From Candidatus Poribacteria bacterium (lineage in GTDB: Bacteria > Poribacteria > WGA-4E > GCA-2687025), in contig OY762492.1 of the NCBI GenBank assembly GCA_963665845.2, positions 2,624,001 through 2,688,000 of the forward strand: a stretch of DNA of 64,000 bases. The letters are read 5' to 3'. The translations under genes and the position numbers were made by a program. The notes under the pieces were generated by a model. It was not told the DNA's origin. It did not search any database and worked only from the letters and a program-made list of their open reading frames with translations. Positions 47,301 through 61,990 of the stretch are shown piece after piece; the stretch's first letter is position 1, and every line of letters begins with the position of its first letter.

Positions 47301-48194
47301 GGCGACCGAATAGACATCATCCGTATGTCCCTGGAGCGTTCGGAGATGCGCGCCTGTGTCGGCGTCCCAGATGCGAACCGTGTTGTCGGCGCCGCCGCTG
47401 ACGAGTCTTGTCCTGTCGGGCGAATAGGCGACCGATTTGACTTCGTCCGTATGTCCTTGGAGCGTTCGGATGCGGGAGCCTGTATTCGCGTCCCAGATAA
47501 TGATCGTTCCGTTGTCGTTGTCGTCGTCGCTTCCGCCTCCGCTAGCAATTTTCTTTCCGTCCGGCGAATACGTTACAGAATAAACATCATCCGTATGTCC
47601 CTGGAGCGTTCGGAGAAGCGTGTACGTATCAGTGTTCCAGATGCGAACCGCGTTGCCGCTTCCGCTGACGAGTCTTGTCCCGTCGGGCGAATAGGCAACC
47701 GATTCGACGTCGCTCGTACCTTGGAGCGTTCGGATGCGGTCGCCTGTTGCGGCGTTCCAGATACGGATCGTTCCGTTGTCGCTTCCGCTGACGATCCTTG
47801 ACCCGTTTCGCGAATAGGCGACCGAATTGACATCATTCGCGCTGAGCATGTGGAGAAACGCGCCCGTGTCGGCGTTCCAGATGCGAACCGTGTTGTCGTC
47901 CCCGCCGCTGACGAGTCTTGTCCCGTCGGGCGAATAGGCAACCGATTCGACGCCGTCCGTATGTCCTCGGAGCGTTCGGATGCGGTCGCCTGTTTTGACG
48001 TCCCATATGAGGATCGTTCCATCGTCGCTGGCGCTGGCGATTTTAGTCCCGTCTGGAGAATACGCGACCGAATACACTTCGCCCGTGTGACCTGTCAGCG
48101 TTTTAAGGGTTTGCGCTTGGCTGTTATGCGCCAGAAAAGCGGCGGCAACAGCAAAGCAAAAGGCTGTGGAAAAAGCGGAAGTAAGGCGTTTCAT
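44343..48194 (-). CDS. Secreted protein: two 7-blade WD40 propellers, three bacterial Ig-like domains and a C-terminal FlgD-Ig/T9SS-like sorting domain
   Basis: RBS GGAGG and signal peptide (MKRLTSAF...SQA). 14 GH..V.SVAYSPDG..IW repeats in two blocks of 7, Ig-like F.VTIAFSE.V.GF.ASD repeats, and LLPNYPNPFNPETWIPF...GIYYARI. Confidence 0.9.
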   Translation of the reverse strand: MKRLTSAFSTAFCFAVAAAFLAHNSQAQTLKTLTGHTGEVYSVAYSPDGTKIASASDDGTILIWDVKTGDRIRTLRGHTDGVESVAYSPDGTRLVSGGDDNTVRIWNADTGAFLHMLSANDVNSVAYSRNGSRIVSGSDNGTIRIWNAATGDRIRTLQGTSDVESVAYSPDGTRLVSGSGNAVRIWNTDTYTLLRTLQGHTDDVYSVTYSPDGKKIASGGGSDDDNDNGTIIIWDANTGSRIRTLQGHTDEVKSVAYSPDRTRLVSGGADNTVRIWDADTGAHLRTLQGHTDDVYSVAYSPDGRNVASGSVDRAVRIWNVSDLAPLSVTISGPTSAQGGPFNVTIAFSEDVTGFDASDLETTNGAVTKLTGSGKTYTATIAPILPGTVSVSVPANAAGNKEASNKFSVVYEPPSVTVSGPTGVQAGLFNVTIAFSAEVAGFEASDIEATNGSVTKLTGSGKTYTATIAPTRAGTVRVSVPANAAGANQASNEFSVVYEPSAVSSQILSGHTGNVWSAAYSPDGASLASASDDDTIRIWNPSTGETLQTLAGHTGSVISVTYSPDGSRIASAGADDTIRVWNAETGEILQTLTGHTDTVRSAAYSPDGSRIASSSRDDTIRVWNADTGELLQTLTGHTDYVRSVAYSPDGTMLASGSDDDTIRIWNAGTGELLQTLTGHTNSVYSAAFSPDSSRLVSGSQDAAIRIWNPNTGETLQTLTGHTGSVLSAVYSPDGSRIASASRDDTIRIWDAQTGAHIETLTGHTGSVTSVAYSPDGSRLASASQDDTIRIWPRGVSIVAPSTLITGPEGIVTGSFEAAISFSKTVTGFEASDIEATNGEAVSLEGSGVNYTAVIAPAATGPVVVTVPVGAAQDADGNPNDAASYAVLALIPDASFTLRLNAGLNMIHAPVNDPELENAEDLYKKLGGSEAVGALVVQTADGQFAAYFGAGTGPPLRDSGAVLAIMLSAKSVTFTGGLLPTQVPLRQGVNLIGVPRSGSVATVGDLMSMDAAATTCFLEKDGKFKHAVGSVLNEPLVGGKGYILIASEATVLTFDGEAWTNDAAAATAAAASVSQRDTASVSALAASGLLSLEDGLAPLNGIAASVTHLRTGQTLTAAAGASSEDGRFSVVFLDLFGDGYAVGDLFELRVADPAGAFGGVQSVRYALTQQDIARGAVDFGRLLMTEIPSKTVLLPNYPNPFNPETWIPFELAEASRVKLTIYNAAGQTVRALELGQLPAGTYRSRSKAAHWDGRNALGEPAASGIYYARIEAGSFTAMRRMVVLK

Positions 48195-48372
48195 CAAAGA
48201 ATCCTCCGTTCGCGGCGATGAGGTCTGTATCGGATTGAAAGCTGCACATACGCCGACCAACGCCTGCCGAACCTTTAGCGTAAACAACAAGTTTGGCTGA
48301 AGGTCCGGCGGCGCAATTCAGCGTCTTTGAAAGCGTGAAAACCTTAATAGCCCTTATCGGGGCAGGTTGCCG

Positions 48373-48729
48373 TCAGTCGTCTCTGCGGCGTCGATCGTCG
48401 TCATCATCATCGTTTCTGCGGCGCCGGTCGTCGTCATCATCGTCGTCTCTGCGGCGCCGGTCGTCGTCATCGTCGTCGTCATCGTCATCGTCATCATCGT
48501 ACCGATCATCGTCGTACCGGTCGTCGTCATCATCGTCATCGTCGCCGCCGCGCCGGTTGTTGTTCCGGTCGTCGTCACCGTCGTCGTAGTACCGGTCGTC
48601 ATCGTATCTGTCATCGTCGTAGCGATCGTCGTACCGGTCGTCGTCCAGATAATAATCGTCGTGGTCTTCGCCGCACGAGACCAAACAGGCGACGCCAAGA
48701 ACTGCCGCCGCAAACATTGCCCACTTCAT
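48373..48729 (-). CDS. Extremely Asp-rich low-complexity lipoprotein (118 aa)
   Basis: RBS GGAGG and signal MKWAMFAAAVLGVACLVSC. Mature part consists of DDRY repeats, poly-D and D6-7R4 blocks. Confidence 0.75.
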   Translation of the reverse strand: MKWAMFAAAVLGVACLVSCGEDHDDYYLDDDRYDDRYDDDRYDDDRYYDDGDDDRNNNRRGGDDDDDDDDRYDDDRYDDDDDDDDDDDDDRRRRDDDDDDDRRRRNDDDDDDRRRRDD

Positions 48730-48802
48730 GATTGTCCTCCAGAGTTTCCGTTGCGCTGTCTGTATAACATACCGAATCAAAATGCGCAATGCGGGACTTT
48801 AG

Positions 48803-48936: not shown

Positions 48937-49546
48937 GAACTTTGACGGGAAGCTGGCGCCACCATGCCTCCTCCGCATCGATTTTGAGAATGTGCGTGTT
49001 GCCGGGTATGTCGTTCGCGCCGAGTCCTTTTTCGATAACGGACGCGCATGGGTCCTTTAAAATGAGCTGTCCCAGTTCCCGTTCGATCTTGGCGCGTGTC
49101 CGCAAAATGACGGCGCCAATCAGTTCCGCCTCCGACCTGTCCAGCAGATGATCGATGTTCCAGTGGAGCCGCTTGCCGTTTCTCGGCAGCAGATTTCCTT
49201 CGCCGAGCTGAATCGACGGAAAAAACTGAAGAAAGGTTTGTTGAATCGGATGCGGCGGCAGATCGCCTGTACGCGACGCATGGCGCGCGAGCCGACGCGC
49301 GAGCGATACGCCCCCTTTGGACGCCAGCGCCGAGCCGACGTAAAGATACTCGCCGGCGGGGGTATGAATCGGCTTCGCTTTTTTAAACCGTCCGTACGGC
49401 ATCGTCAAACTCTCGCGGACATGGATGCGCAGCAGGTAGGCTCCCGACGGCTCCTCTCCGCCGCAGACGGCGATGAAAAAGCGGCTTGAAGGCGCGCGGC
49501 GCGTCTTTATTTGCAATTGGGAGCCTGAATTCGTTAACATAACCAT
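48866..49546 (-). CDS. DUF123 / GIY-YIG (Uri superfamily) endonuclease-like protein
   Basis: GAYLL...GEYLYVGSAL...LARRLARH...KRLHWNIDHLL...GLGAND...THI. Start codon uncertain. Confidence 0.75.
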   Translation of the reverse strand: MVMLTNSGSQLQIKTRRAPSSRFFIAVCGGEEPSGAYLLRIHVRESLTMPYGRFKKAKPIHTPAGEYLYVGSALASKGGVSLARRLARHASRTGDLPPHPIQQTFLQFFPSIQLGEGNLLPRNGKRLHWNIDHLLDRSEAELIGAVILRTRAKIERELGQLILKDPCASVIEKGLGANDIPGNTHILKIDAEEAWWRQLPVKVRTLIRDIRGAASDSPLEKGARGV

Positions 49547-49571
49547 GTTCACTTCGGCGGAGGGCATGACG

Positions 49572-50750
49572 ATGCGGATGATACTTTATACAGGAAAAGG
49601 CGGCGTCGGTAAAACCAGCGTGACCGCGGCGACCGCCATCCGCTTGGCGGAGATGGGTTATCGAACGCTCGCGATGTCGGTCGACCCGGCGCATTCGTTA
49701 GCCGATTCGTTCGATCTGGACCGGCGGCTCATGGACCACGGCGAAGGGCGCCCCGTGCAGGTGAGAGACAACCTGGACCTGCAGGAGATACTGATCCACG
49801 CCGAGGTGGAGCGGCACTGGTCGGTGGTGTACGGGTACATCGCAAAGCTGCTGAAAACCTCCGGGGTGGACGGCGTCGCCGCCGAAGAGCTTGCCATCTT
49901 TCCCGGCATGGAGGAAATCTGCGGGCTGCTGTACATCAACCAGTATCTCCAAGAGCAGACCTACGATGTCGTCCTGCTTGACTGCGCGCCGACGGGGGAG
50001 TCGCTCCGCTTTGTCAGCATCCCGACGACGCTCGACTGGTATATGTCAAAGGTGTTCAAGATGGAGCGGCGGCTGGCGACCATCGCGCGCCCCGTCATCA
50101 AAAAAGTCAGCTCCCTCCCGATACCGGAGGACAATTACTTCAGCAACATCGAATACCTGTTTGAGCGGCTTCAAGGAATCGACGCGGCGCTGCGCGATTC
50201 GTCCATCACAACGGTGCGCCTTGTGACGAACCCTGAAAAGATGGTGCTGAAGGAAACGCAGCGCGCCTTTATGTACTTCTGCCTCTACGGGCTGACCATC
50301 GACGGCGTCGTCATCAACCGCATCCTGCCGCCGGACATTCAGGGCGAGTTCATGGAATCGTGGCGCTCTCTTCAGCAGGGGTATCTGGAGGACATCGAGT
50401 CGTTTTTCAGCGGCGTTCCGATCTGGCGCATTCCGCTTTTTCAGGGCGAAGTGGTCGGCGAGTCGAGCCTCAAACGGCTTGCGGACGCGCTGTACGGCGA
50501 CGGCGACCCGTCCGAGCGGCATGCTGAAGAAGCGCCGATACGTTTTGAAAAGGTGGACGAAACGACGCATCTGTATATGCGCCTGCCGTTTGTGAAAGCG
50601 GAGGATATTGAGCTGTCCGCCTTCACAGACGAGCTGGTGGTTCAGATTGGCAACTTCAAGCGGCATGTGTCGCTTCCGCGCAGCCTCGCCGGACGAAAAC
50701 CGAGCGGAGCCAAGCGCAAAGGCGACATGCTCGACATCGCATTCGACTAA
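49572..50750 (+). CDS. ArsA/GET3 (TRC40)-family ATPase with a C-terminal HSP20-like domain
   Basis: Motifs GKGGVGKT, SVDPAHSL, FPGMEE, DCAPTG and NRI, then a C-terminal beta domain (LPFVKAEDIEL...DELVVQIGNFKRHVSLP). Confidence 0.88.
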   Translation: MRMILYTGKGGVGKTSVTAATAIRLAEMGYRTLAMSVDPAHSLADSFDLDRRLMDHGEGRPVQVRDNLDLQEILIHAEVERHWSVVYGYIAKLLKTSGVDGVAAEELAIFPGMEEICGLLYINQYLQEQTYDVVLLDCAPTGESLRFVSIPTTLDWYMSKVFKMERRLATIARPVIKKVSSLPIPEDNYFSNIEYLFERLQGIDAALRDSSITTVRLVTNPEKMVLKETQRAFMYFCLYGLTIDGVVINRILPPDIQGEFMESWRSLQQGYLEDIESFFSGVPIWRIPLFQGEVVGESSLKRLADALYGDGDPSERHAEEAPIRFEKVDETTHLYMRLPFVKAEDIELSAFTDELVVQIGNFKRHVSLPRSLAGRKPSGAKRKGDMLDIAFD

Positions 50751-50761
50751 GGGGTAGTACT

Positions 50762-50990
50762 CTGACCTCTGCCTAAAGTTGGGACATCTGAACCGACGAT
50801 CGCTCTATTCATGGGAAAAAGGCTCCGCTTACCAGGCCGTCATTCCCGCGCAAGCGGGAATCCAGAGTCCACCTCGAAACCGTCCGCATTCGTCTGCCGA
50901 CATGTCCCAACTAAAGACGTAAGGGCAACCCTAGCCCCCCTTTTCAAGGGGGAATCGGACGCGACTCGAATATCCCATATGAGCGTACTA
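50762..50990. mobile_element. MITE-like element plus flanking C/G-tract module between convergent genes
   Basis: CTGACCTCTGCCTAAAGTTGGGACA ... TGTCCCAACTAAAGACGTAAGGGCA, with a dRS3-like core. Confidence 0.75.
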
Positions 50991-50994
50991 TCGA

Positions 50995-52314
50995 CTAAGG
51001 CAGAAGACCGCCGACCGCCCGCGCCAGCCGCGCCGCCGCGGCCGCCGCGTCATGGGCGGCGCGCAGCTGATTCAGCTCTGTTTGCGTCCGCTGCAGCTCT
51101 ATGTCCGCCAGCTCAACGCTCGTGATCAGCCCGTTTTCAAACGACAGGTTTGCAATGCGCAGCGCCTCTTCCGCCTGTTGGACCGCCTCGTTGAGCGCCT
51201 CAAGCGACGCCTTCGCTTCTTGATAGGCGAGATACGCCTGCCGCGTTTCCAGCTCCACGCCGCGCTTCAGCGCCTGAACCGCCAGCGACGCCTGCGCGAG
51301 ACGCGCCTCCGCCGTCTGCGTTTGCGCCTTCGCTGCGAACCCGTCAAAGATCGGAAACGAGACGCCGACGCCGGTTGACCAGACGCTCTGCGCGTTCTGC
51401 TTCTCGTTGTCGCTCCAGGAGCCTGTCCAGGTGAGGGCGACGTTCGGCTTGTTGGCGGCTTTGGCGATCTGAACGCCGCGCATGGCGGCGTCGGCGAGCG
51501 CCTGCGCCTCTTTCAGCTCATGCCTGTTCATGCGCGCCGTTTCGATCAGTTCCTCCAGCGGCGCCTCCACCGGTTCGTGTTGGAAGTTTCCGACTGCCTT
51601 GAATTCCAGGTCGGAGTCTTCGCCGATGGAGACGGCAAGGGCGCTCATGGCGAGGGCGCGGGCGTTGTCGGCGCGCATGGCGTCCGCGCCGGCGTTCGCT
51701 TTGGCGACATTCGCTTGAAGCAGGTCCAGCTGCGTCGCCGCGCCGGCTTCCATGCGCAGCTGTACGATGTTGAGCCGCCGTTCGGTTTGCTTTAGGGCGC
51801 GCTGGGCGGTTTCTGCGGCTTTTTCGGCGAAGAGCGCCGCATAAAAATACTCGGCGGTCTGCAGGGCGGTACGCTGTTTTACGGCGTTCAACGCCTCCAT
51901 TTCCGCCTGTACCGTTTTGTCGGCGGCTTGGACGGCGCGGGTCGTTTTCCACCAAGTGAAGATCGGCCACTGTATCTGCGCGATGCCGCGGTAATCATGG
52001 CGGGTCCCGAATTCGATCTCGATCGGGTCGCCGTTCTGCGCCGGGTCTTGAACGCCTGGAAACCCGTCAAAGTCGAGCGCCTGTTTCAGCAGGATCCCGT
52101 TGTAGAGGTAGGAGCCGGTGAGGTTGAGCGACGGCAGCCGCTGGGCGCGGGCGGCTCTGGCTTGCGCGCGGGCGGCTTCGACGCTTTTCTCGGCGATCTG
52201 GACAGGTTCCGACTTTTGAAGCGCGCGTTCAATCGCCTGCTCTAAGGTGAAGGCGTTCTCGGCGGCGGGCGCCGGCTGCGCCAGAAGAAGCGCCGCAAGA
52301 AGAATACATGGCAT
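50995..52314 (-). CDS. TolC-family outer-membrane efflux protein
   Basis: Signal peptide and OEP pattern (TLEQAIERAL, AQRLPSLNL, FEAG/FENG repeats, FPIFDGF). Confidence 0.88.
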   Translation of the reverse strand: MPCILLAALLLAQPAPAAENAFTLEQAIERALQKSEPVQIAEKSVEAARAQARAARAQRLPSLNLTGSYLYNGILLKQALDFDGFPGVQDPAQNGDPIEIEFGTRHDYRGIAQIQWPIFTWWKTTRAVQAADKTVQAEMEALNAVKQRTALQTAEYFYAALFAEKAAETAQRALKQTERRLNIVQLRMEAGAATQLDLLQANVAKANAGADAMRADNARALAMSALAVSIGEDSDLEFKAVGNFQHEPVEAPLEELIETARMNRHELKEAQALADAAMRGVQIAKAANKPNVALTWTGSWSDNEKQNAQSVWSTGVGVSFPIFDGFAAKAQTQTAEARLAQASLAVQALKRGVELETRQAYLAYQEAKASLEALNEAVQQAEEALRIANLSFENGLITSVELADIELQRTQTELNQLRAAHDAAAAAARLARAVGGLLP

Positions 52315-52450
52315 CGCGTATGTCTCCCGTATGCATAGGACGTCTACATACAGAATTTAGCGCGCAAGGCGCATAAGGTCAAGAAGCTCGGCAGTACGGC
52401 AGTACCTACAGGCGATGGCATTCATTTGCGCGGCGGCCCGATGTCCATGC

Positions 52451-52555
52451 TGTCATTCCCGCGCAAGCGGGAATCCAGAGGCGCCGTAGAGGCCGTCCGC
52501 GCCCCGCCCGTTATGACAAAGCCCCAGACCGTCTAAATCCTTTCATCCTAGTTCA
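52451..52555. repeat. dRS3-like palindrome plus half of the ATCCTAGTTCA hairpin module
   Basis: TGTCATTCCCGCGCAAGCGGGAATCCAGAG and TCATCCTAGTTCA. Confidence 0.7.
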
Positions 52556-52639
52556 GCAGAACAGCGTAACGCCCGCCCCCGCGCTTCGTTTACCATGCGC
52601 CGCGCCGATTCACACATAAACAGATAAGGACAGCCGCCC

Positions 52640-53056
52640 ATGCCGAGCGTGTATCTTCACTTCAACGGCAATTGCCGCGAAGCGTTTGAGTTTTACAGGT
52701 CTGTTTTCGGGGAAGAGTTCACGACCATCTCCGCCTTCCGCGACGCCCCCGTCGACATCCCTAATATCTCCGAAGACGACATGGACATGATCATGCATGT
52801 CAGCTTTCCCGTCTACGGCGACGAGCTGATGGGCAGCGACGTTCCCGACAGTTTCGGCTTGAACCAAGGCAACAACTTCGCTGTCAGCGTCTCTCCTGAA
52901 ACGCGCGGGGAGGCGGACGCGCTGTTTGCCGCGTTGTCGGAAGGCGGGAGCGTCCGCATGCCGATGAGCGACGCTTTCTGGGGCGGATACTTCGGCGCCT
53001 GCGTCGACAAGTTCGGCGTCGCCTGGTACATCAGCAGCGAGGACGTTTCTGAATAA
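52640..53056 (+). CDS. VOC-family (PhnB/YjdN-like) protein
   Basis: Motifs YLHFNGNCREAFEFYRSVFG, IMH, LMGSD and FWGGYFG..VDKFGVAW. Confidence 0.9.
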   Translation: MPSVYLHFNGNCREAFEFYRSVFGEEFTTISAFRDAPVDIPNISEDDMDMIMHVSFPVYGDELMGSDVPDSFGLNQGNNFAVSVSPETRGEADALFAALSEGGSVRMPMSDAFWGGYFGACVDKFGVAWYISSEDVSE

Positions 53057-53072
53057 CGCGCGCTGTCACCGC

Positions 53073-53340
53073 AATGAACAAAGCCTCTATTCATGGGAAA
53101 ATGCCCCGCTAACCAGGTCGTTTCCCGCTTCCGCGAGGACATGCATTCCCGCCTTTGCGGTGAAACGCGCGGGAATCCATCGGCGCCGCTAAGCGTTTTA
53201 ACCCCCAACCTCCTTTGAAAAGGGCGGGGGGTTTCTGGCGTAACACAGCGGCGAACCGATACGTTCTTAAACATGGGCAGACCGCCGCCCGCGTATGTTG
53301 CCCTTGTATGTTGACCGCGTATGTTGCCCGTGTGTTGCAA
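53073..53340. repeat. MITE internal fragment plus short GTATGTTGCCC tandem repeat
   Basis: TATTCATGGGAAAA...CGCGAGGACATGCATTCCC-N20-GGGAAT, and four GT(A/G)TGTTG units at ~53293-53338. Confidence 0.65.
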
Positions 53341-53402
53341 TGGGCGCGGGCGCGGGTTATGATAGCCACAGACATTCACCGTCCTCCTCGAAAGGCGGCT
53401 TC

Positions 53403-54569
53403 GTGAAACCCTTGAACATCGCGTGTATCGGCGGAGGGACGGGACTCTCCACCCTGCTCCGAGGCTTCCGTCAGTATGCGGCGGCAAATGACGGCGGACC
53501 TTACGACATGGACGGGCTAACTGCGATCGTCTCCGTCTCCGACGACGGAGGCAGCTCCGGCAAGCTGATTGACGAATTCGGCGTCCTTCCCCCAGGCGAC
53601 ATCCGCAACTGCCTCGTCGCGCTCGCCGAAGAGAACGAAACGATGAGCCGTCTTTTTGAGTACCGGTTTGACAGCAACGGCGCTCTGCGCGGACACAGCG
53701 TCGGCAATCTGCTGCTCATCGCGCTCACCGACCTGTTCGGCACGTTTCCGCTCGCCATACGCGAAGCCGCCAGGGTACTTGCGGTGCGCGGGCGCATTCT
53801 CCCGGTGACCGTCGAACAGACGCTCCTGTGCGCCGAGCTGGTGGACGGCGAGATCGTCTGCGGCGAGTCGAACATTCCAGACCGAAGAAACCGCGCCCCG
53901 ATCCGCCGCGTCTTTTTAAAACGCCGACCCGAAAACGGCGCCGATGTGGAGGAGCTTGGAAGCGACTCGATCAAGGCGCATCCGGAGGCGGTCAAGGCGA
54001 TTGTGGAAGCGGACGCGGTCGTCATTGGGCCGGGGAGCCTTTATACCAGCATTCTTCCGAATATCGTTGTGCCTGAAATCGCGGACGCGCTGCGCCAGTC
54101 GAAAGCGCTCAAGGTTTATGTCGGAAACGTCATGATTGAGCCGGGCGAAACGGACGGGTTCTCGCTTTCTGATCATGTGAACGCCGTTCGGCGGCATGGC
54201 GACCTGCGCGTCGATTATGTGCTGGCGAATTCAGGTCTCGCGTCGGACGCGCTGCTGCGGCGGTACTACAAGCAGGCGCAGCAGGCGCAGCGCCCATCGG
54301 ACAACTCCAAACAGTGGACATCGTTCAACGACTTTATGGATCAGATCGACCCGAAGGCGGACCCGCGCGACCCGCCCGAACGCGCGCTTGTGCAGACGCT
54401 TTACCGCCCCGATGTGGACGATGTCTCCCCCGCCGAGATCGTGCAGGAGGATTTGATCAGGGAGGCGGACGTTCAGGAACGGGGCGAGACGCTGCGCGTG
54501 CTGCGCCATCATCCGCTCAAGCTTGCCGCCGCCATCGCGCGCCTGTTTGAGAACCGCTGCGGCAAATGA
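53403..54569 (+). CDS. yvcK: YvcK/GlmR (CofD-like, UPF0052) protein
   Basis: Motifs IGGGTGLSTLLRG, VSDDGGSSG, PGDIRNCL, GHSVGNL and GPGSLYTSILPN. Confidence 0.92.
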   Translation: MKPLNIACIGGGTGLSTLLRGFRQYAAANDGGPYDMDGLTAIVSVSDDGGSSGKLIDEFGVLPPGDIRNCLVALAEENETMSRLFEYRFDSNGALRGHSVGNLLLIALTDLFGTFPLAIREAARVLAVRGRILPVTVEQTLLCAELVDGEIVCGESNIPDRRNRAPIRRVFLKRRPENGADVEELGSDSIKAHPEAVKAIVEADAVVIGPGSLYTSILPNIVVPEIADALRQSKALKVYVGNVMIEPGETDGFSLSDHVNAVRRHGDLRVDYVLANSGLASDALLRRYYKQAQQAQRPSDNSKQWTSFNDFMDQIDPKADPRDPPERALVQTLYRPDVDDVSPAEIVQEDLIREADVQERGETLRVLRHHPLKLAAAIARLFENRCGK

Positions 54570-57031
54570 TGAAGGCGCTGGACGAAGCGTTTGGATTTCC
54601 GCTCACAGAGACGCGCCCCGACATCGCCGAACGGCTTGCCGCCGCGCTTTCAGCCGAAACGCCCCGCCTCTCCGATGAGGAGATACGCCGCCGCCTTTCC
54701 ATTCAATGGGTCGTTCTGGCCGCCGGCAAGGGCAGCCGCATGGATCCGACGGGGCGGTTTAACAAGAACATTGATCTCTGGTTTGGAACGCAGAACGCTC
54801 TTCAGCGTGTTTGCCGCCATCTGCCGGGGACGCTTCCTCCGCTCGCAGTCGTCAGTCCAGCGATGGCGCGGCGCGTTTTAAAAAAAACGGACGGCGGAGA
54901 AACGCTCTCTGGACACATCTCTGGACTCCTGGACGAAGCGCGTCTGGACATCCGTCTTCGAGACCGTCTTTTTGGGAAGGGCGCGCCGCTGGCGGTTCAA
55001 CCGGCGCCGAACGGCCCTGGCGGGGCTGTCATGGCGGCGGAACCGTTTTTGCGCGCGTCTGAAGCGGAGCTGGCGGGCGTTCTTTACGGAGATGAACCGT
55101 TTGCGCCGCCGGACGCGGCGGTTGAAACGCTTGCCGCGTTCATTTGCGAGGGGGCGGACGCGGCGCTCTGCGGAAAGAAACCTGAAACGGTTGTCGGAAA
55201 GGGCGCCGTACTTTTCGACGAGGAGGGGCGGTTCTGCGGAACGCTGGAATGGCGCGACATGACGCCCGAAGAGCAGGAACGCATGCGCGCCCTGCATGAA
55301 ACGAACGACGCCGTCACGAACGCGGGCGTCTCCGTTTTCCGCCGCGAAACGATGCTGGAATTGCTCGGCTCGCTCTGGCTTCACAACGGGGCGGAATATC
55401 ATCATACCGATCTGTTTCGGCTTTTTTATGAGCGCGGTTTCAAAACGCATGCGCACATCTATGAAGGATTTATACCTTCTGGAGTGAACCGCTGGACGAA
55501 CGTTCTGGACGGGGAGGCGGCGCTTTTTGAGCGGGCGCGAAGGCGGCTTGCCGAGGAGGGCGTTCGCGTCTTGCCGGGCGCGCAGGCGCACATTGCACCG
55601 CACATTTCAAACGGAGAAAACAGGGAGAGCGGCGCGGCGTTCGGCGTCGGATGCGCTGTTTCGGGGAGGATCGTTGTCGGGGAAAAATGCGGCATCGGGA
55701 AGTATGTACATCTTTCAGACACCGTTTTAGAAGGCGAAACCAGCGTCGGCGACCGGGCGCGCGTCCGCGATTCAAGGCTGCGGAACGCCGCCGTGGACGC
55801 ATGCGACGACGGATCGCCGGTCGGCGCCGCCGTCAACCTGCTGCATACGCTGACAAACATCGACGGCTGCGCGCTTGAGAATGTTGTCGTCGGGCGGGGC
55901 TGCCGGCTTCAGAACGTTCAGGCGCGTTTTACGGTTCTGCCGCCGAATCTGCGTTTGCGGAATCGGCGCCTCGGCGTTTGGCGCGACCCGTCGCTTGGGC
56001 TGCCGTATGAGGAAACGCCGGCGCTCTACCGACTCGTCCCGGAGAGTTATCTGCCGGGCGTGTTCACCTTCGCCGACCGGAAGCATGAGCCTGACTGGGA
56101 GAAGCTGCGGGCGCATGTTCGGCGCATGTCGGTCGAAGAGCTGGCGCCGCGCCTCTCTCGAAGCGAAGAGACGCGGCGCGTTTTCATCCGCTGCGTTCAT
56201 CAGCTTCTGGACGCGCAGTTTGAGGGTCGACATCTCATCGACCCGTTGACGCCGGAGGAGCTGTGGGGGGTTCTGTATGAGCTGGCGCGGCTATGTTCAG
56301 GCAACCCCGATCCGTACGCCGCTGAAAAGCGCGCTTCCCGAAACGAAGCGGAGCGGCTTTTCAACCAAATGAACGGGCGGGGCATGGAATGGGAGCCGCT
56401 GCTGCGCGCCGCGGCCGCCGCCAACCTGATCGATTACAGCAGCGCGCGTATGACCGCCGCGATGCGCCTTAACCCAAACCTGCTCGCCGAAACGCTGGAA
56501 GAGGCGCAATCCAGACCCTTCGCCATCGACTCTTTCAAGGCGTTTGAACGGCTGCTGTTGAGCGGGGAGAAGCGGCGCGTTCTCTTGTTGACCGACAACG
56601 ACGGCGAGATCGTGTTCGATATAGAAATGGCGCGTCGGCTTGCGGCGGAGGGGCATCATGTTGAGATCGCCGCCCGTTCGTCCGCCGCCGGCAACGACAT
56701 GACAGCGTCCGATTTATCGGTTATACTGGGCGGGATGGACCTTCATATCGGCGTTATGGGCAGCGGCTCGCGTACGGCTGGAACAAACCTGTTTCAGGCG
56801 TCCGCCCGTTTTGCGCATGCGCTTCAAGAGGCGGACGTCGTCGTCTCAAAGGGGCAGGGAAACTGGTACACGACGCAGGGGCTGCGCAAGGACAGGTTTT
56901 ACATGCTGATGTCGAAGGGTATGACAGCGGAGCGGACGACCGGCGTTTCGGCGGAGGGGTTGATACTGGCGCATCTGTCCGCCGGCGCGGAGGGCGGTCG
57001 TCCGCTCATCGAAACTGCCCAGAACGAATAA
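54566..57031 (+). CDS. Fusion of a GlmU-like nucleotidyltransferase, a short left-handed beta-helix and a DUF89/ARMT1-like phosphatase
   Basis: GlmU N-domain motifs VLAAGKGSRM, NGPGGAV, LYGDEP, EYHHTD and GVN. Hexapeptide stretch. DUF89 motifs DPY..EK..SN, ANLIDY, TDNDGEIVFD, ND and SKGQGN. Confidence 0.8.
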   Translation: MMKALDEAFGFPLTETRPDIAERLAAALSAETPRLSDEEIRRRLSIQWVVLAAGKGSRMDPTGRFNKNIDLWFGTQNALQRVCRHLPGTLPPLAVVSPAMARRVLKKTDGGETLSGHISGLLDEARLDIRLRDRLFGKGAPLAVQPAPNGPGGAVMAAEPFLRASEAELAGVLYGDEPFAPPDAAVETLAAFICEGADAALCGKKPETVVGKGAVLFDEEGRFCGTLEWRDMTPEEQERMRALHETNDAVTNAGVSVFRRETMLELLGSLWLHNGAEYHHTDLFRLFYERGFKTHAHIYEGFIPSGVNRWTNVLDGEAALFERARRRLAEEGVRVLPGAQAHIAPHISNGENRESGAAFGVGCAVSGRIVVGEKCGIGKYVHLSDTVLEGETSVGDRARVRDSRLRNAAVDACDDGSPVGAAVNLLHTLTNIDGCALENVVVGRGCRLQNVQARFTVLPPNLRLRNRRLGVWRDPSLGLPYEETPALYRLVPESYLPGVFTFADRKHEPDWEKLRAHVRRMSVEELAPRLSRSEETRRVFIRCVHQLLDAQFEGRHLIDPLTPEELWGVLYELARLCSGNPDPYAAEKRASRNEAERLFNQMNGRGMEWEPLLRAAAAANLIDYSSARMTAAMRLNPNLLAETLEEAQSRPFAIDSFKAFERLLLSGEKRRVLLLTDNDGEIVFDIEMARRLAAEGHHVEIAARSSAAGNDMTASDLSVILGGMDLHIGVMGSGSRTAGTNLFQASARFAHALQEADVVVSKGQGNWYTTQGLRKDRFYMLMSKGMTAERTTGVSAEGLILAHLSAGAEGGRPLIETAQNE

Positions 57032-57049
57032 ACGAAGAGGAGTGAACGC

Positions 57050-57838
57050 ATGGAGGTGGTCGTCGCGCCGGACGTGGATCAATTCGCCGCGAACTGGCTT
57101 GTGGAGCAATGGGATGAGATCAGCGCCCTTGGGCTGGCGACCGGCTCCACCCCTGAAAATTTATACGGCTGGCTCATTCAGCGGTATTACGACGGCGACA
57201 TCTGTTTTGCAGACATGAACACATTTAACCTGGACGAGTACCTGTCGCTGGCGCCGAATCATCCGCAGAGTTACAGGGCGACGATTCACCGCCAGCTGAT
57301 TCAGTATGTGGACCTGAAGCCTGAAAATTTTCATGTGCCGCCGGGTTTGACGAACGATGTGGAGGCGGCGTGCGAAGCGTATGAGGACGCCATCGCGGTC
57401 GCGGGCGGCGTTGATGTGTGGATACTCGGCATCGGGCATGAGGGGCATATCGCGTTCAACGAGGCGCCGAGCGAGAAGGAGACGCGCACCCGGCTTGTGG
57501 ACCTGTCGGACAGCACCTTATACCATAACGCGCGCTTTTTCGACAACGATCTTTACCGCGTCCCGAAGCAGGCGATCACCGTCGGCGTGGCAACCATTTT
57601 AGAGGCGCGGAAGCTGCTGCTTCTGGCTAAAGGGGACGCGAAGGCGAAGCCCGTCGCGGACGCGGTGATGGGAAATCAGACGGAGAATTTAGCGGCGTCT
57701 TGGCTCCAAAGCCATGAGGCATGCGTCGTCGCGCTTGACCATGCGGCGGCGTCGGAGCTGCTGACGCGGGCGCCGGCAGGCGAGTCGGTCATCGAGAGCG
57801 CGGACGGGATACGGCATACGATCACCTTCGCCGCCTAA
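57050..57838 (+). CDS. nagB: Glucosamine-6-phosphate deaminase
   Basis: Motifs LGLATGSTP, FNLDEY, LGIGHEGHIAFNE, VPKQAITVG and ASWLQSH. Confidence 0.92.
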   Translation: MEVVVAPDVDQFAANWLVEQWDEISALGLATGSTPENLYGWLIQRYYDGDICFADMNTFNLDEYLSLAPNHPQSYRATIHRQLIQYVDLKPENFHVPPGLTNDVEAACEAYEDAIAVAGGVDVWILGIGHEGHIAFNEAPSEKETRTRLVDLSDSTLYHNARFFDNDLYRVPKQAITVGVATILEARKLLLLAKGDAKAKPVADAVMGNQTENLAASWLQSHEACVVALDHAAASELLTRAPAGESVIESADGIRHTITFAA

Positions 57839-57839
57839 G

Positions 57840-58030
57840 GAAGCGTCCGCGCCGCTATTCGTCCCCCGCTCTCCGCGAGGACATGCATTCCGGGCGCGGC
57901 TAAAACCCCCCCAGCCCCCCTTTTCAAGGGGGGAGTCTAGAAACCCGCGCGATCCGCCGTCATCGGGCGGATCGTCATTCCCGCGCAAGCGGGAATCCAG
58001 AGTTCTCTCAGACAGCCTCCGCATTCCAAA
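57840..58030. repeat. Composite palindromic repeat between convergent genes
   Basis: CGCGAGGACATGCATTCC, CCCCCCAGCCCCCCTTTTCAAGGGGGG and GTCATTCCCGCGCAAGCGGGAATCC. Confidence 0.8.
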
Positions 58031-58067
58031 AGACCTCAAGAGGCTCCTTTGAGCGTTAGCTAATTGC

Positions 58068-59072
58068 CTAAAGCGGCTCCTCAAACAGCTCCGCGATTTC
58101 AACCATCGCCCGCCGTTCGTGCGACCGCGCGCATGCCTCAATAACCGCCAGCGTGTCCAGGTTGTTGCGCCCCGATATGCCAGGCTCAACGCCCTCCGCG
58201 ATGTACCGGTAAAAATCGTCCATGACGCCCTGCTCGGATCTGCCCGTCTGAACGAGCGGAACCGACTCCGCCGCGCCTGAATTGATCGGACGAAACTCGA
58301 CTCCGCCGACATCGTAAGCGCGGATGGTGCCTTTTGTTGTGTGGAAAAAGGCGCGGTAGAAGCTGTTCTGGGCGACGTGCGTCATTGTGTAGGCGCAGAC
58401 GGCGCCGCTCTCGTATTCGATGACGGCGCTGATGTTCGCGTTGTGCGGGGCGTATTTGCTCCACGAGGCGCCGTAGGTTTGCCCAATCGCCGTTTTGGGC
58501 CGCCCCAGAAAGAAGTTCAGGTTGTCAAAATGGTGGCAGCTCATGTCCCACATCATCGCGTTTTTGTAGTTGAGCGTGCGCGGCTCTGGGCGGTAGCGGT
58601 GGTGCGTTATGTCCATGAATTCGGCGTCGCCGTATGCGTCCGTTCCAAGCATGCTCTTGATGGTTTGCTCTACGGGGTTGTAGCGGTAGTTTTGCGAGAC
58701 GCAGAAGCGGCTTCCCGCCTGCTCCGCTTCTTGGACAAGCCGCCGCGCGAGGCTCCATTCCAGCGTCATCCCTTTTTCAACAAGCGCATGCAGCCCCGCC
58801 TCAAACGCGGCGCGCGCGATGGGCGCATGCATGACGGTCGGCGCGCAGCCGACGACCAGATCCGCCTCAACCGCTTCGGCGGCTTTGGCGGTGTCGTCGA
58901 AGCAGGCGCTCTCGGGCAGCCCCGTCTTTTGACGCGCGGCTGCAAGATGATTCGGGTTGATGTCCACCAGCGCGACCGACTCAAACCGCTCGTCCGCGCC
59001 GACCAGATCCAGCGGCCAACGCCCCCGTCCTCCTGTGCCGACATGAATCACGCGCAACGGCCGCTCCGACAT
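58068..59072 (-). CDS. Gfo/Idh/MocA-family oxidoreductase
   Basis: Motifs VGTGGRG, HALVEKG, QNYRY and DMSCHHFD. Confidence 0.88.
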   Translation of the reverse strand: MSERPLRVIHVGTGGRGRWPLDLVGADERFESVALVDINPNHLAAARQKTGLPESACFDDTAKAAEAVEADLVVGCAPTVMHAPIARAAFEAGLHALVEKGMTLEWSLARRLVQEAEQAGSRFCVSQNYRYNPVEQTIKSMLGTDAYGDAEFMDITHHRYRPEPRTLNYKNAMMWDMSCHHFDNLNFFLGRPKTAIGQTYGASWSKYAPHNANISAVIEYESGAVCAYTMTHVAQNSFYRAFFHTTKGTIRAYDVGGVEFRPINSGAAESVPLVQTGRSEQGVMDDFYRYIAEGVEPGISGRNNLDTLAVIEACARSHERRAMVEIAELFEEPL

Positions 59073-59147
59073 CGCCTTCTCCGTTTCTTCGTTTTTGTAC
59101 GCGCCCGCATCCTACCGCCGTCTGTTCAAAAACGCAAACGCGCCTTA

Positions 59148-59311
59148 CTGACCTTGCGTCTTTAGTTGGGGCATGCGGGCGGGCGAACGCGGACGGTTTC
59201 GGCGGCGCTTCTAGATTCCCGCTTGCGCGGGAGTACGATCTGGTTTGCGGCGCTTTTCCCATGAATAAAGGCTTTGTTCGTTCAATGGTCTCTACTTTAT
59301 GCATGAGGTCG
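59148..59311. mobile_element. MITE-like element (complete, diverged)
   Basis: CTGACCTTGCGTCTTTAGTTGGGGCA ... GGTCTCTACTTTATGCATGAGGTCG, with a dRS3-like core. Confidence 0.7.
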
Positions 59312-59357
59312 GGAGGTTCTGAACTCGTCAATATCCCGACTTAAAGGGCTGGATCCG

Positions 59358-60389
59358 CTAGCAGGTTGAAAGAATATCCTCCGCGAGGCTTCCGCACAGC
59401 GCCTCAAACCCTTCGCGCCGAAACCGCGTCGGCGGTTCGATGATGTCGGGGCGGCCGATGACCGCGTAATGATCAACAGCCGCAAACCCGCGCGTCTCCC
59501 CCCATAGCTGCGACAATGTCGGGATGACGCCGTCTGTCAGCCGCGCGTCCGCCTTCACGCGCTCCGTCTTTGGCCAGATGCAGCCCTCCAAAACGGCAGG
59601 GCGCGGCGCGGCGCCTTTCTGCCATCGGGACGCATGATAATCCATGAAGGCGTATAGGCTCGCGCGGCGCGGCGCGCGGACTCCCGCCGCATAGCTGACA
59701 TAACGCACATTCGGCGCGTCCGTCATCCGCGCGGAAAGGCGGCGCATGCGCCCTGGGTTCATATCCTCCAACGCGCCGCTCAACTGCGACAGGCTGCGCA
59801 AATACTGCGCGACCGCCGGCAAACGCCCCTGCGGATCCTCCGCGGCATCTTCAAAAATGCTCAGGATGTCTCTCGGCGCGCCTTTCAGGCTTTTCTCCAG
59901 CGCATATTTCCGCGAGTCGAAAAAACGCCAGACCTGTTCAACCGCGTTCGGCTCCGCCATCTTCAACGCCGCGCGCGAGCAGAACGCCATGAACTTGTCA
60001 AAACGAACGGCGCGCCCAAAATCTGCCAGCGGCGTTCCAAAATGAGGCGACGCAATGCAGACCGCCGTCCGCAGACGCTCCTGAAGCGGCGCCGGCAGAT
60101 GTACAGAGACGGCGGGCGACGCAAGCCAGCGCGCGTCCAGACCGCCCATGCTATGCCCTACCAGATGCAGCGAACGGGGAAGCGGGCGCCCCTGACGGAA
60201 GAGGCGGACGATGTTGCGGCGGAGAATCTTGGCGCGCTGTTCAATCGAAGCGGCGGGGCGCGTCGGAACCGAGACAGGCTCTATGCCGCGCTTCAACAGC
60301 TCCGCCGACACCGCGCCCCAGTAGTGGAACCGCGGACCTGTCCCGACAAAACCCATATAGCCAGGTATCAGGACGGCAAGATGCCTCAT
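59358..60389 (-). CDS. Alpha/beta hydrolase (lipase-like)
   Basis: Nucleophile elbow GHSMGGLDAR, SPHFGTPLAD, TDGVIP and VDH. Confidence 0.85.
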   Translation of the reverse strand: MRHLAVLIPGYMGFVGTGPRFHYWGAVSAELLKRGIEPVSVPTRPAASIEQRAKILRRNIVRLFRQGRPLPRSLHLVGHSMGGLDARWLASPAVSVHLPAPLQERLRTAVCIASPHFGTPLADFGRAVRFDKFMAFCSRAALKMAEPNAVEQVWRFFDSRKYALEKSLKGAPRDILSIFEDAAEDPQGRLPAVAQYLRSLSQLSGALEDMNPGRMRRLSARMTDAPNVRYVSYAAGVRAPRRASLYAFMDYHASRWQKGAAPRPAVLEGCIWPKTERVKADARLTDGVIPTLSQLWGETRGFAAVDHYAVIGRPDIIEPPTRFRREGFEALCGSLAEDILSTC

Positions 60390-61990
60390 TCTTCCGCTTC
60401 TTCGTTATACGCCGGCTTCACGAGGTAGATGTTGAACCGCTCATTCCCGATGGCCGCAGGTCCCATGAAGGACTGCAGCAATTCAATGCGCGGGTTTTCT
60501 TCTAAAACCTCTTCAGACAGGTTGCCGCTAAGCGCGATGAGCGTTTCATGGTCTCGGTCGAGCGCCGTCTGGGCGACCTCCCTCTTGCTGCCGCTTCGGC
60601 TGCGTTCTCGGTCCCAGCGCACAAACGAACCCCATCGGGAGCCGCGCTTGTAGTAAAACCGCTTATTTTCAAGATAGCCGACGATGGCACTGGTCGGCGC
60701 GTCCTCATGCGCGATGATGTAAGCGTCCTGATAGCCCGCCCCGCGCAGATACTCCGCCGCCTCCAGCGCCCTTGAAAAAACGATGCGCCGATCCCATCGG
60801 TGCGCCCGCAGCCCGCCGAACGCCTGAAGCGCAAACAGCAGCGTCAACCCGACCGCCGCGGCGCGTTTCCAGTGCGGATGCAGGCGCTTTAAAAAACGCG
60901 GAACCGCCAGCAGCGCGCTCCAGTACCGCGCTGTCCAAACGAGTGCCGCCAGCGTCAGATATAAAAACCCGTGATGGCGGATGCTGCCGGGGTACTTCAT
61001 ATAGAAAAAGGTCAACAGCCCGACGGTCGCCGCGCCGAAGGAGATCAGCGCGCCCGGGCGGCGCCATAAACTGACCGCAAACAGCGCCGCCAAACCGACG
61101 CTGAACCAGAGCTTATGCGCGCTGTAAAAGCTCCAGTCGTACAGCGCATTCGAACCCCAGCCGTTCTCTTTCGGCACCGCAAAGTACGCCCTGTTGAGGC
61201 GGTCTAGCATGTTGATCGCGCGGTTTGGATCCCAACTGGTGTGCCATCCGACCGCAAAGCCGTAGTCGGGGGGCGGCTTCAGCTGAAGAACCGCCGTCAA
61301 GATGCCGATGCCGATGAGCGCAAAGCCGACCCAGACGCGCCGCCGTTCGGAAGACGCCGCCTCGGCGATCTCGCGCCGGCTTATGAGCGCCTCCAGCGTC
61401 AGCCCGAACGCGAGCGCGATAACGACGATGAGCGCATGAACGCTTGTGTGGCACGCCAGCAGCAGCGCCAGTCCAAGCCAGTGAAAGTACTTGAACCGAT
61501 GTTGATACAGCGCCGCAAACGCAAACAGCAGCAGCATTCCGACGCCGTAATTTCGGCAGATGACCGCATACTCATAAGACGGAAAATAGCCGAACGCGAA
61601 CAGCAGGCGCGCGGCGGGATGAAACGGGGCGTAGCGCGTAAAAAGAAACACCGCCCCAGCCGCAATCGCCAGATGCAATATCTGCATCCCGACAGGCGAC
61701 CATGAGAGGCGCGTTACGGGCAGCAGCAGCAGGTGCCACAAGCCTGGATGCCCCTCGTATTTGAGATGGCGATGCAGGTCGATCGGTCCTGTGCTGTCGC
61801 GGGCGAGCAGCCATGCCTGTATTTCGTCGCGCCACATCTCATGCAGCCCCGCCGTCCAGCCGACAAACAGGACGAACGCCGCCGTGACCAGGATCGCAAA
61901 GAGCCGCTCCGTCCGCTTGTCAGGCGAGTCCCAGCGCATGAAGCTCCATACGTTTCCCCAGCGCGTCATACGGACGCTCCCTTCAGGCAT
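60386..61990 (-). CDS. Multi-pass membrane protein, GT-C-type glycosyltransferase-like
   Basis: HEMWRDEIQAW and YEGHPGLWHLLL after the first TM, YEYAVICRNY, ~11 TM helices, and a soluble C-terminal domain. Confidence 0.6.
   Translation of the reverse strand: MPEGSVRMTRWGNVWSFMRWDSPDKRTERLFAILVTAAFVLFVGWTAGLHEMWRDEIQAWLLARDSTGPIDLHRHLKYEGHPGLWHLLLLPVTRLSWSPVGMQILHLAIAAGAVFLFTRYAPFHPAARLLFAFGYFPSYEYAVICRNYGVGMLLLFAFAALYQHRFKYFHWLGLALLLACHTSVHALIVVIALAFGLTLEALISRREIAEAASSERRRVWVGFALIGIGILTAVLQLKPPPDYGFAVGWHTSWDPNRAINMLDRLNRAYFAVPKENGWGSNALYDWSFYSAHKLWFSVGLAALFAVSLWRRPGALISFGAATVGLLTFFYMKYPGSIRHHGFLYLTLAALVWTARYWSALLAVPRFLKRLHPHWKRAAAVGLTLLFALQAFGGLRAHRWDRRIVFSRALEAAEYLRGAGYQDAYIIAHEDAPTSAIVGYLENKRFYYKRGSRWGSFVRWDRERSRSGSKREVAQTALDRDHETLIALSGNLSEEVLEENPRIELLQSFMGPAAIGNERFNIYLVKPAYNEEAEE

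Follow-up and report, generated by a model that had tools for sequence, protein, structure and literature searches.

A GlmU-type nucleotidyltransferase fused to a DUF89 domain is conserved in a class of Candidatus Poribacteria without canonical GlmU

Introduction

How does a bacterium obtain UDP-N-acetylglucosamine (UDP-GlcNAc) when its genome holds no canonical glmU gene? GlmU is regarded as almost universal in the synthesis of bacterial walls and lipopolysaccharide. Alternatives to it are only now being catalogued (10.64898/2026.06.23.733835). The question is raised by three genes, yvcK (glmR), a fusion gene and nagB, in a 64,000 nucleotide (nt) stretch of contig OY762492.1 (GCA_963665845.2) from a Candidatus Poribacteria bacterium; this whole stretch is called the window, and coordinates are window positions unless a locus is named. 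Here, we show that the 821 amino acid (aa) fusion, which joins a GlmU-type nucleotidyltransferase to a DUF89 domain, is real, conserved and class-wide, and that the class encoding it is without canonical GlmU, the main point that an earlier note on this DNA had missed. The fusion may replace the uridyltransferase half of the absent GlmU, with an attached damage-control phosphatase and fed by salvaged GlcNAc, an explanation that, judging from sequence comparison, has about an even chance of being right. Its support consists of the architecture, the conservation of both active sites, the loss of the acetyltransferase motifs, the absence of canonical glmU and the co-distribution with glmM and yvcK. 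The features of the locus, all on the + strand, are:

53403–54569, +, yvcK/glmR (CofD-like), 388 aa, GTG start; TIGR01826 304 bits (cut-off 196), PDB 2hzb/2o2z E 2e-66
54270–54407, +, insertion in YvcK, about aa 290–335, approximate limits; PDB match stops at aa 293, class alignment
54566–57031, +, 821 aa fusion of GlmU-type nucleotidyltransferase, shortened left-handed beta-helix and DUF89 (ARMT1-like) phosphatase; domain scan, predicted model, fold search
54698–55555, +, nucleotidyltransferase domain and linker helix of the fusion, about aa 45–330; profile alignment to E. coli GlmU
55556–55975, +, shortened beta-helix of the fusion, about aa 331–470, without GlmU acetyltransferase motifs; model, motif check
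55976–56980, +, helical extension and DUF89 of the fusion, about aa 471–805; PF01937, PH1575 fold match
57050–57838, +, nagB, glucosamine-6-phosphate deaminase, 262 aa; TIGR00502 244.9 bits (cut-off 236.9), PDB matches E 6e-50

The fusion is real and present throughout the class

A Pfam scan of the fusion placed PF12804 at aa 49–203 and PF01937 at aa 568–777 (101 bits, cut-off 25). Against the glmU model TIGR01173 the protein reached 71.2 bits (cut-off 366.85), over aa 138–407 only, and hence does not score as a bifunctional GlmU; its best NCBIfam match, the damage-control phosphatase model NF040824, was also below cut-off (80.9 bits, cut-off 440). An AlphaFold model built on a 28-row alignment (mean pLDDT 81.8, pTM 0.51) comprised the transferase, the linker helix, a beta-helix at about aa 335–465 with low-confidence loops and the DUF89 domain, the relative placement of these domains being unsure at this pTM. 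When the model was submitted to Foldseek, PH1575, AF1104 and many GlmU proteins ranked first, PH1575 with a TM score of 0.8 by target. The profile scan, the model and the fold search thus bear out the layout that the earlier note had read from the letters, namely a GlmU N-domain, a short hexapeptide helix and DUF89, and the coordinates of the open reading frames (ORFs) agree with its account of three co-oriented genes, with an ATGA overlap between yvcK and the fusion gene (54566–54569) and a gap of 18 bases from the stop codon of the fusion gene (TAA, ending at 57031) to the start codon of nagB (ATG at 57050).

We searched 151 genomes of the phylum, 148 of them from the window's class (this genome included) and three from another class. 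The fusion was strongly matched in 146 of the 148 class genomes, in 137 with E values rounding to 0 and in nine as strong partial matches (E 1e-78 or better) at contig ends, breaks or shorter forms; the two exceptions gave a weak match (G119) or none (G025), and the three other-class genomes gave weak domain hits only. It is a single-copy gene in the class. Among the 30 homologues listed for the protein, 27 were full or partial copies of the fusion, the named ones, at 89% identity, being Candidatus Poribacteria, and databases label it merely by its domains. The earlier note had named an assembly artefact as a possible undoing of the fusion; this is excluded by the class-wide matches, which show it intact in relatives, and by two contigs spanning the junctions: a contig of the same study covers 53189–57920 and shows 0 differences, and a contig of another study covers 53237–57834 and shows 235. 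Contigs of two RNA libraries from relatives covered each of the three genes in part, as well as both junctions; this is no proof of transcription or of a single transcript.

Distant colinear proteins of about 1000 aa share the layout (P0049, P0057 and P0060), and the modules also occur inside proteins of 1400–6000 aa. Four loci of named genomes comprised one Omnitrophota and one Planctomycetia record with giant ORFs carrying the fusion module (L122 and L123) and two with 630–700 aa forms lacking DUF89. In large multi-enzyme proteins (P0044, P0074 and P0108), a single chain combines DUF89 with domains of the CofD/YvcK-like, NTP-transferase, GHMP-kinase or HAD type.

Both active sites are conserved and the acetyltransferase motifs are lost

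We aligned this protein with 53 fusions from fetched loci (n = 54, three cut by contig ends and 34 from one family). In a profile alignment to E. coli GlmU and three homologues (probability 99.65, 406 columns), fusion residues R58, K67, Q145, D176, G213, E228, N252, E277 and N308 correspond to R18, K25, Q76, D105, G140, E154, N169, E195 and N227 of the E. coli enzyme. These nine uridyltransferase-site equivalents are retained in 52–53 of the 54 fusions, the remainder being gaps. K25, Q76 and D105 are needed for uridyltransfer in Haemophilus influenzae GlmU (PMC10128056), and N169 contacts the 3-OH of the sugar, its loss impairing Staphylococcus aureus GlmU (10.64898/2026.06.23.733835). The N-domain is therefore predicted to work like the N-half of GlmU. 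The acetyltransferase motifs H-x-x-Y-x-G-D and NYDG, the lack of which had already been remarked on for this protein, were found in none of the 54 fusions, the region being deleted in the GlmU alignment; H363, Y366, N377 and N386–D388 are the residues that we take to form this site in GlmU. A cryptic acetyltransferase in the beta-helix was rejected, since these motifs are missing and the sole conserved histidine (51/54) is a valine in this protein.

For the DUF89 domain, 51 intact fusions (the truncated or eroded L067, L083 and L088 were dropped) were compared with 52 stand-alone proteins. The motif set described in the earlier note is complete and invariant: N620, D623, D677, N678, D711, KGQGN (762–766) and K784 are kept in 51/51 fusions and would provide the nucleophile Asp-Asn, the second-metal Asp, the lid Asn/Asp and the phosphate-binding Lys, where equivalence to Duf8901 is by motif rather than by alignment. 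At the presumed place of Asp363 the fusion has Gln, as do 49 of the 52 stand-alone homologues. Two features set the groups apart, an N-terminal CxxC (47/52 stand-alone, 0/54 fusions) and a Cys after the catalytic Lys (52/52 stand-alone, 0/51 fusions, which have G instead), and R592, R628, D679 and E789 are invariant and specific to the fusions. The domain is thus predicted, by these motifs, to act like a DUF89 phosphatase. Fission-yeast Duf89 enzymes form an aspartyl-phosphate intermediate and hydrolyse pyrophosphate (PPi), and enzymes of the family hydrolyse sugar phosphates as well as PPi, the budding-yeast enzyme favouring fructose-1-phosphate (PMC9062747). Families f5 (G045, P0027, P0034) and f7 (G135, P0035) have lost the lid and catalytic motifs of DUF89 and kept the transferase motifs. 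The domain is thus eroded in these two lineages and absent from the 630–700 aa homologues while the transferase persists, a pattern that fits an accessory role for DUF89. Eroded or DUF89-less forms lie at L083:6960–9032 (G045), L088:3230–5347 (G135), L120:7063–8955 and L121:7713–9824.

Canonical GlmU was not found and amino sugars may be salvaged

No canonical glmU exceeded the model cut-off in any of the 151 phylum genomes, compared with 9 of 14 control genomes, and the best glmU hit in the window's genome, for which the earlier note had left the matter to be checked, was the fusion itself. Archaeal-type glmM was found in 147 of the 148 class genomes (147/151 in all, E 1e-100 or better) and yvcK in 148/151, that is, in all 148 genomes of the class; at the thresholds used, fusion, yvcK and archaeal-type glmM were all lacking in the three other-class genomes. 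An alternative bacterial glmU was over cut-off in six genomes.

The window's genome encodes murA, lpxA, lpxC and lpxD, and therefore should have a demand for UDP-GlcNAc; it further encodes glmM, a second mutase, two nagA, murQ, anmK, three ROK proteins, ackA and a family I pyrophosphatase. The best assignments of its four PF00483 proteins are GlgC, ManC and, for two of them, GalU-like. Searches of this genome found no glmS (the best hit being purF), RapZ, NagU-like protein, archaeal-type GlmU or GalK-like kinase, and no beta-helix proteins besides LpxA, LpxD, CysE, GlgC and the fusion. A genome search for an AmgK-type kinase gave 0 matches, and a local profile then picked up one APH-fold protein without an NCBIfam name (L214:4391–5506); in G151, a methylthioadenosine phosphorylase gene precedes that of its relative. 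No candidate for the missing acetyltransferase was seen near nagB or glmS (20 loci) or near nagA, murQ, anmK, ackA and glmM of this genome, where selected sets of 43 and 48 ORFs were scanned and GNAT families were not searched genome-wide. The presence of NagA, MurQ, AnmK and ROK kinases, together with the failure to find glmS, a glucosamine-1-phosphate (GlcN-1P) acetyltransferase or NagU, suggests that this genome supplies its GlcNAc by salvage.

Elsewhere in the class, 17 genomes carry a stand-alone GlmU-C-type acetyltransferase. Sixteen of these matches were strong, all 16 in genomes with glmS and mostly beside it, so that these genomes hold the half of GlmU that the fusion lacks. The 225 aa protein of G115 (L118:1378–2052) and its relatives carry an H-x-x-Y-I-G-D motif and mostly follow glmS directly. 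Another arrangement was observed in G135 (L089:2399–9149), where ackA, pta, an alternative glmU and nagB precede a gene for a 795 aa fusion of a galactokinase-like GHMP kinase and a GlmU-N-like transferase, likely a one-protein HexNAc salvage enzyme; a search of the window's genome gave no copy of it.

The three-gene order is a family-level arrangement

Gene order was compared at 62 loci, 61 of them with the fusion, from 54 other genomes; for 35 of the 62, the flank was limited to 1.5 kb, so that only adjacent genes could be scored. yvcK adjoins the fusion gene in five of the 54 genomes (G008, G100, G104 and G132 of family f1, and G135 of f7) and nagB in four, all of f1. The order yvcK-fusion-nagB occurs in all five f1 genomes examined and, by gene order, a conserved three-gene module is excluded outside this family. 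The conserved pair is instead glmM-yvcK, with glmM directly upstream of yvcK in 14 of 17 yvcK loci. G104 has glgC-glmM-yvcK-fusion-nagB, G135 glmM-yvcK-fusion-nagA and G033, G047 and G061 glmM-yvcK-glmS, the operon noted for loci L101 (G033) and L156 (G047) and genus g8; in the window's genome, a distance of about 78 kb separates the operon from glgC-glmM upstream. The context is one of amino sugars in every arrangement seen, and the three-gene operon is best described as a family-level arrangement of a larger glmM-yvcK unit. In a quick tree of 33 fusion proteins, the two glmS families formed one clade (SH-aLRT 97), and f1, f5 and f7 were unresolved at the base, for which reason the ancestral order cannot be fixed. 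In 10 loci outside f1, f5 and f7, glmM-yvcK is preceded by a 265 aa protein that has no clear Pfam family (L101:6125–6919 and relatives).

YvcK, of which the genome has one copy, retains the DDGGS aspartates, the SILPN asparagine and the C-terminal RH[DH]P arginine in an alignment of 18 class members, as expected for the family. The insert of about 45 aa that the earlier note had pointed out is real, though common to the class and longer in other families (18 sequences). Its remark that yvcK is outside the usual rapZ/whiA context holds in that RapZ was not over cut-off in this genome and glmM is the usual neighbour; whiA was not searched for. Listeria GlmR is a uridyltransferase in vitro (PMC10128056), an activity supported in Bacillus subtilis (PMC13046274). 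As glmS, rapZ and a GlcN-1P acetyltransferase were not found in this genome, YvcK is more likely an enzyme than a sensor and is better read as an accessory uridyltransferase.

NagB keeps D62 and the HIAFNE motif, including equivalents of the catalytic D72, H143 and E148 of such deaminases, and exceeds the TIGR00502 cut-off, consistent with family membership. It is the only nagB of the genome. Across the phylum, glmS was found in 36 of 151 genomes (f2 10/10, f3 26/26) and nagB in 114 (f2 0/10, f3 1/26). The two occur together in one genome (G140) and are both missing from two, and are hence almost mutually exclusive; 35 of the 36 glmS genomes keep the fusion gene and lack nagB. Because the glmS families form one clade, this complementarity may reflect a single event. 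nagA was present in 67 of 81 genomes, among them 53/53 of those tested in f4; 14 of 19 glmS genomes lacked it. Directly upstream of nagB, a 262 aa xylose-isomerase-like TIM-barrel gene was observed in 8 of 15 nagB loci (L141:5825–6610 and relatives), a possible amino-sugar epimerase.

A proposed role for the fusion and its alternatives

We propose that scavenged or recycled amino sugars would be converted to GlcNAc-6-phosphate (GlcNAc-6P), which the archaeal-type GlmM would turn into GlcNAc-1-phosphate (GlcNAc-1P). The N-domain of the fusion would then use GlcNAc-1P and UTP to make UDP-GlcNAc, with the beta-helix as a structural remnant and YvcK as an accessory uridyltransferase. Beside the transferase site, the DUF89 domain would clear non-cognate or dead-end mutase products (GlcN-1P, glucose-1-phosphate or sugar bisphosphates) or PPi, and NagB would send deacetylated surplus to fructose-6-phosphate (Fru-6P). 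A precedent for sugar-phosphate trouble is the inhibition of Vibrio cholerae GlmU by glucose-1-phosphate, though at the acetyltransferase (PMC12345230).

Several observations weigh against this proposal. The acceptance of GlcNAc-6P by the archaeal-type GlmM is an assumption. In the sugar pocket, where we take T82, Y197 and T199 of GlmU to surround the N-acetyl group, Y197 is replaced by H in 53/54 fusions and T199 by V in 50/54 (T in this protein), T82, kept in 49/54, is P in this protein, and Y139 is K in 53/54. In 102 of 151 genomes there is an archaeal-type bifunctional GlmU-like protein (TIGR03992 200 bits, cut-off 292) whose distribution follows that of nagB, and 6 of 61 genomes, all of f2, hold a UDPGP/NagU-family protein; as the fusion is retained in genomes with either protein, it may do something else. 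It could be the only possible uridyltransferase solely in this genus, g5 and g8, where the archaeal-type protein was not found and YvcK is a second candidate; YvcK alone could supply UDP-GlcNAc. The family I pyrophosphatase makes a PPi role for DUF89 less likely, including one as the cell's pyrophosphatase. Genus g8, with glmS in 20/20, nagB in 0/20 and nagA in 0/8 genomes and no recognized GlcN-1P acetyltransferase, is unexplained by the model and implies an acetylation step of an unrecognized kind. Since the window's genome is rated 89.96% complete, absences in it mean 'not found'.

In an alternative that we consider unlikely, the N-domain would activate another sugar-1-phosphate, such as another or a substituted hexosamine, for a class-specific glycan or metabolite, and UDP-GlcNAc would come from YvcK or the archaeal-type protein. 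The conserved changes at Y197, T199 and Y139, the retention of the fusion beside other candidate uridyltransferases and the recurrence of the module in giant multi-enzyme proteins with CofD, GHMP-kinase and HAD domains would fit it, but the equivalents of E154, N169 and G140 are kept, and the archaeal-type protein, not found in this genus, g5 and g8, has no clear equivalents of G140 and N169 and K in place of R18 (three sequences). The motifs of the member in G029 (P0183, 456 aa, L183:316–1683) differ from those of both active sites of GlmU. The change of Y139 to K is at most a lead towards an anionic substrate, Y139 belonging to an allosteric pocket; allosteric-site mutants of Mycobacterium tuberculosis GlmU stayed active (PMC4619583). 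Slightly less probable is a further possibility, that DUF89 replaced the acetyltransferase as the supplier of GlcNAc-1P, working through an aspartyl-phosphate as a mutase, a bisphosphatase (GlcNAc-1,6-bisphosphate to GlcNAc-1P) or a PPi-dependent phosphotransferase. The domain does occupy the place of the substrate-supplying domain of GlmU, phosphatase-before-transferase fusions such as GmhB-HddC are known, and the fusion-specific R592, R628, D679 and E789, the failure to find an acetyltransferase or a GalK-like kinase here and the alternative GlmU carried by both lineages with an eroded DUF89 would agree with such a role, as would the covalent Asp-phosphate and PPi turnover of DUF89 enzymes (PMC9062747). 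However, no DUF89 transferase or mutase appeared in the literature consulted, DUF89 is intact in many genomes with an acetyltransferase candidate (G052, f2 and most of f4), and GlmM as well as one APH-fold kinase are present here.

The remaining explanations turn on the neighbouring genes. The switch put forward in the earlier note, in which a single hexosamine-1-phosphate is contested by both fusion domains, with YvcK as the sensor of UDP-GlcNAc and NagB as the drain of a self-contained homeostat, is in our view highly improbable. The genes are overlapping or closely spaced, keep their order in all f1 genomes examined, and YvcK retains by motif the arginine equivalent to B. subtilis R301 (PMC13046274), but the co-occurrence that the switch presupposes did not hold up: the order is absent outside f1 (yvcK adjacent in 5/54 genomes, nagB in 4/54), nearly all glmS genomes keep the fusion without nagB, and a phosphatase acting on the transferase's own substrate would create a futile cycle. 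The sensor, in turn, would lack its described regulatory partners, as searches here gave neither GlmS nor RapZ/YvcJ, and GlmR has uridyltransferase activity of its own in vitro (PMC10128056). A proposal about NagB alone, compatible with several of the other explanations, is possible but doubtful: NagB would run in the aminating direction (Fru-6P and ammonia to GlcN-6-phosphate) and replace GlmS, the operon being part of a de novo route with a further acetyltransferase. It would account for the near-exclusive distribution of glmS and nagB, for the position of nagB in G045, G052 and G135, adjacent to alternative glmU, pta and ackA or separated from them by one gene, and for the fusion-nagB pair standing after yvcK where G033, G047 and G061 have glmS. 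A precedent is the reversal of NagB flux in glmS mutants of E. coli, on which our literature search returned no paper. Against it, the single glmS clade allows for one event, the nagA distribution fits scavengers versus producers equally well, and the acetyltransferase was not found here. The combination, in which the class builds UDP-GlcNAc without GlmU because DUF89 supplies GlcNAc-1P (from GlcNAc-6P, a bisphosphate or the transferase's PPi) to the fused uridyltransferase and, in the glmS-less majority, reversed NagB replaces GlmS, is very unlikely; if true, it would represent the first biosynthetic DUF89 phosphotransferase.

Surroundings of the operon

A promoter-like site at 53335–53363 was within chance (2 found versus 1.3 expected), and Rfam gave no match within 50000–60000. 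Short repeats resembling repetitive extragenic palindromes lie in both intergenic flanks of the operon, at 57968–58003, 57905–57945 and 53128–53180, with about 625, 226 and 30 similar copies in the genome, respectively (blastn-short), and very high contig depth. Further ORFs nearby are:

44343–48290, −, 1315 aa, many WD40-like repeats and Ig-like segments (judged from the translation only)
48373–48789, −, short lipoprotein-like ORF with a low-complexity tail very rich in Asp/Arg
49524–50750, +, ArsA/GET3-type ATPase with an HSP20-like tail
50995–52314, −, outer-membrane efflux protein
60386–61990, −, hydrophobic 534 aa protein, no Pfam match

Significance and comparison with known systems

A sampled class of 148 genomes without GlmU keeps a single-copy fusion that ties DUF89 to a defined pathway, which bears on the physiological substrates of bacterial DUF89 proteins and on the role of YvcK without GlmS. 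The split between glmS and nagB and the missing acetyltransferase predict amino-sugar auxotrophy or new enzymes, a point of relevance for culturing these uncultured bacteria. The fusion, not recognized as described in the earlier note, had no description in the full-text literature searched, where the DUF89 family paper (Huang et al. 2016), which might list such fusions, and most subscription papers lay outside the search. Its parts belong to known families and the fusion itself is apparently uncharacterized; the DUF89 fusion named in the literature consulted is that with pantothenate kinase in coenzyme A synthesis (PMC4921024, PMC8669784).

Compared with bifunctional GlmU (TIGR01173; structures from E. 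coli, M. tuberculosis and Streptococcus pneumoniae), the fusion shares the N-domain, the linker helix, the start of the beta-helix and the uridyltransferase residues, and differs in the lack of acetyltransferase motifs, an apparently altered N-acetyl pocket, extra N-terminal helices and the C-terminal DUF89. That domain resembles the PH1575/AF1104 type of DUF89/ARMT1 proteins (PF01937, NF040824) in its fold and in the N-x-x-D, DNxGE, ND, KGQGN and K motifs, whereas, unlike stand-alone members, it has no CxxC and no Lys-Cys, carries basic residues of its own and is joined to a sugar nucleotidyltransferase. YvcK matches by motif the GlmR/YvcK of the yvcJ(rapZ)-glmR-yvcL(whiA) operon in the aspartates, the asparagine and the arginine that are associated with catalysis and with binding of UDP-GlcNAc; here, however, it is linked to glmM instead of rapZ/whiA, carries the class-wide insertion and occurs in a genome in which GlmS and RapZ were not found. 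A further parallel is found in the split or non-canonical UDP-GlcNAc routes with NagU and truncated GlmU halves (10.64898/2026.06.23.733835). Here, the NagU family is confined to f2 and the GlmU N-half carries a phosphatase, which the available part of that source does not mention; in common are a lineage without full-length GlmU, stand-alone acetyltransferase halves and members in which the acetyltransferase is missing.

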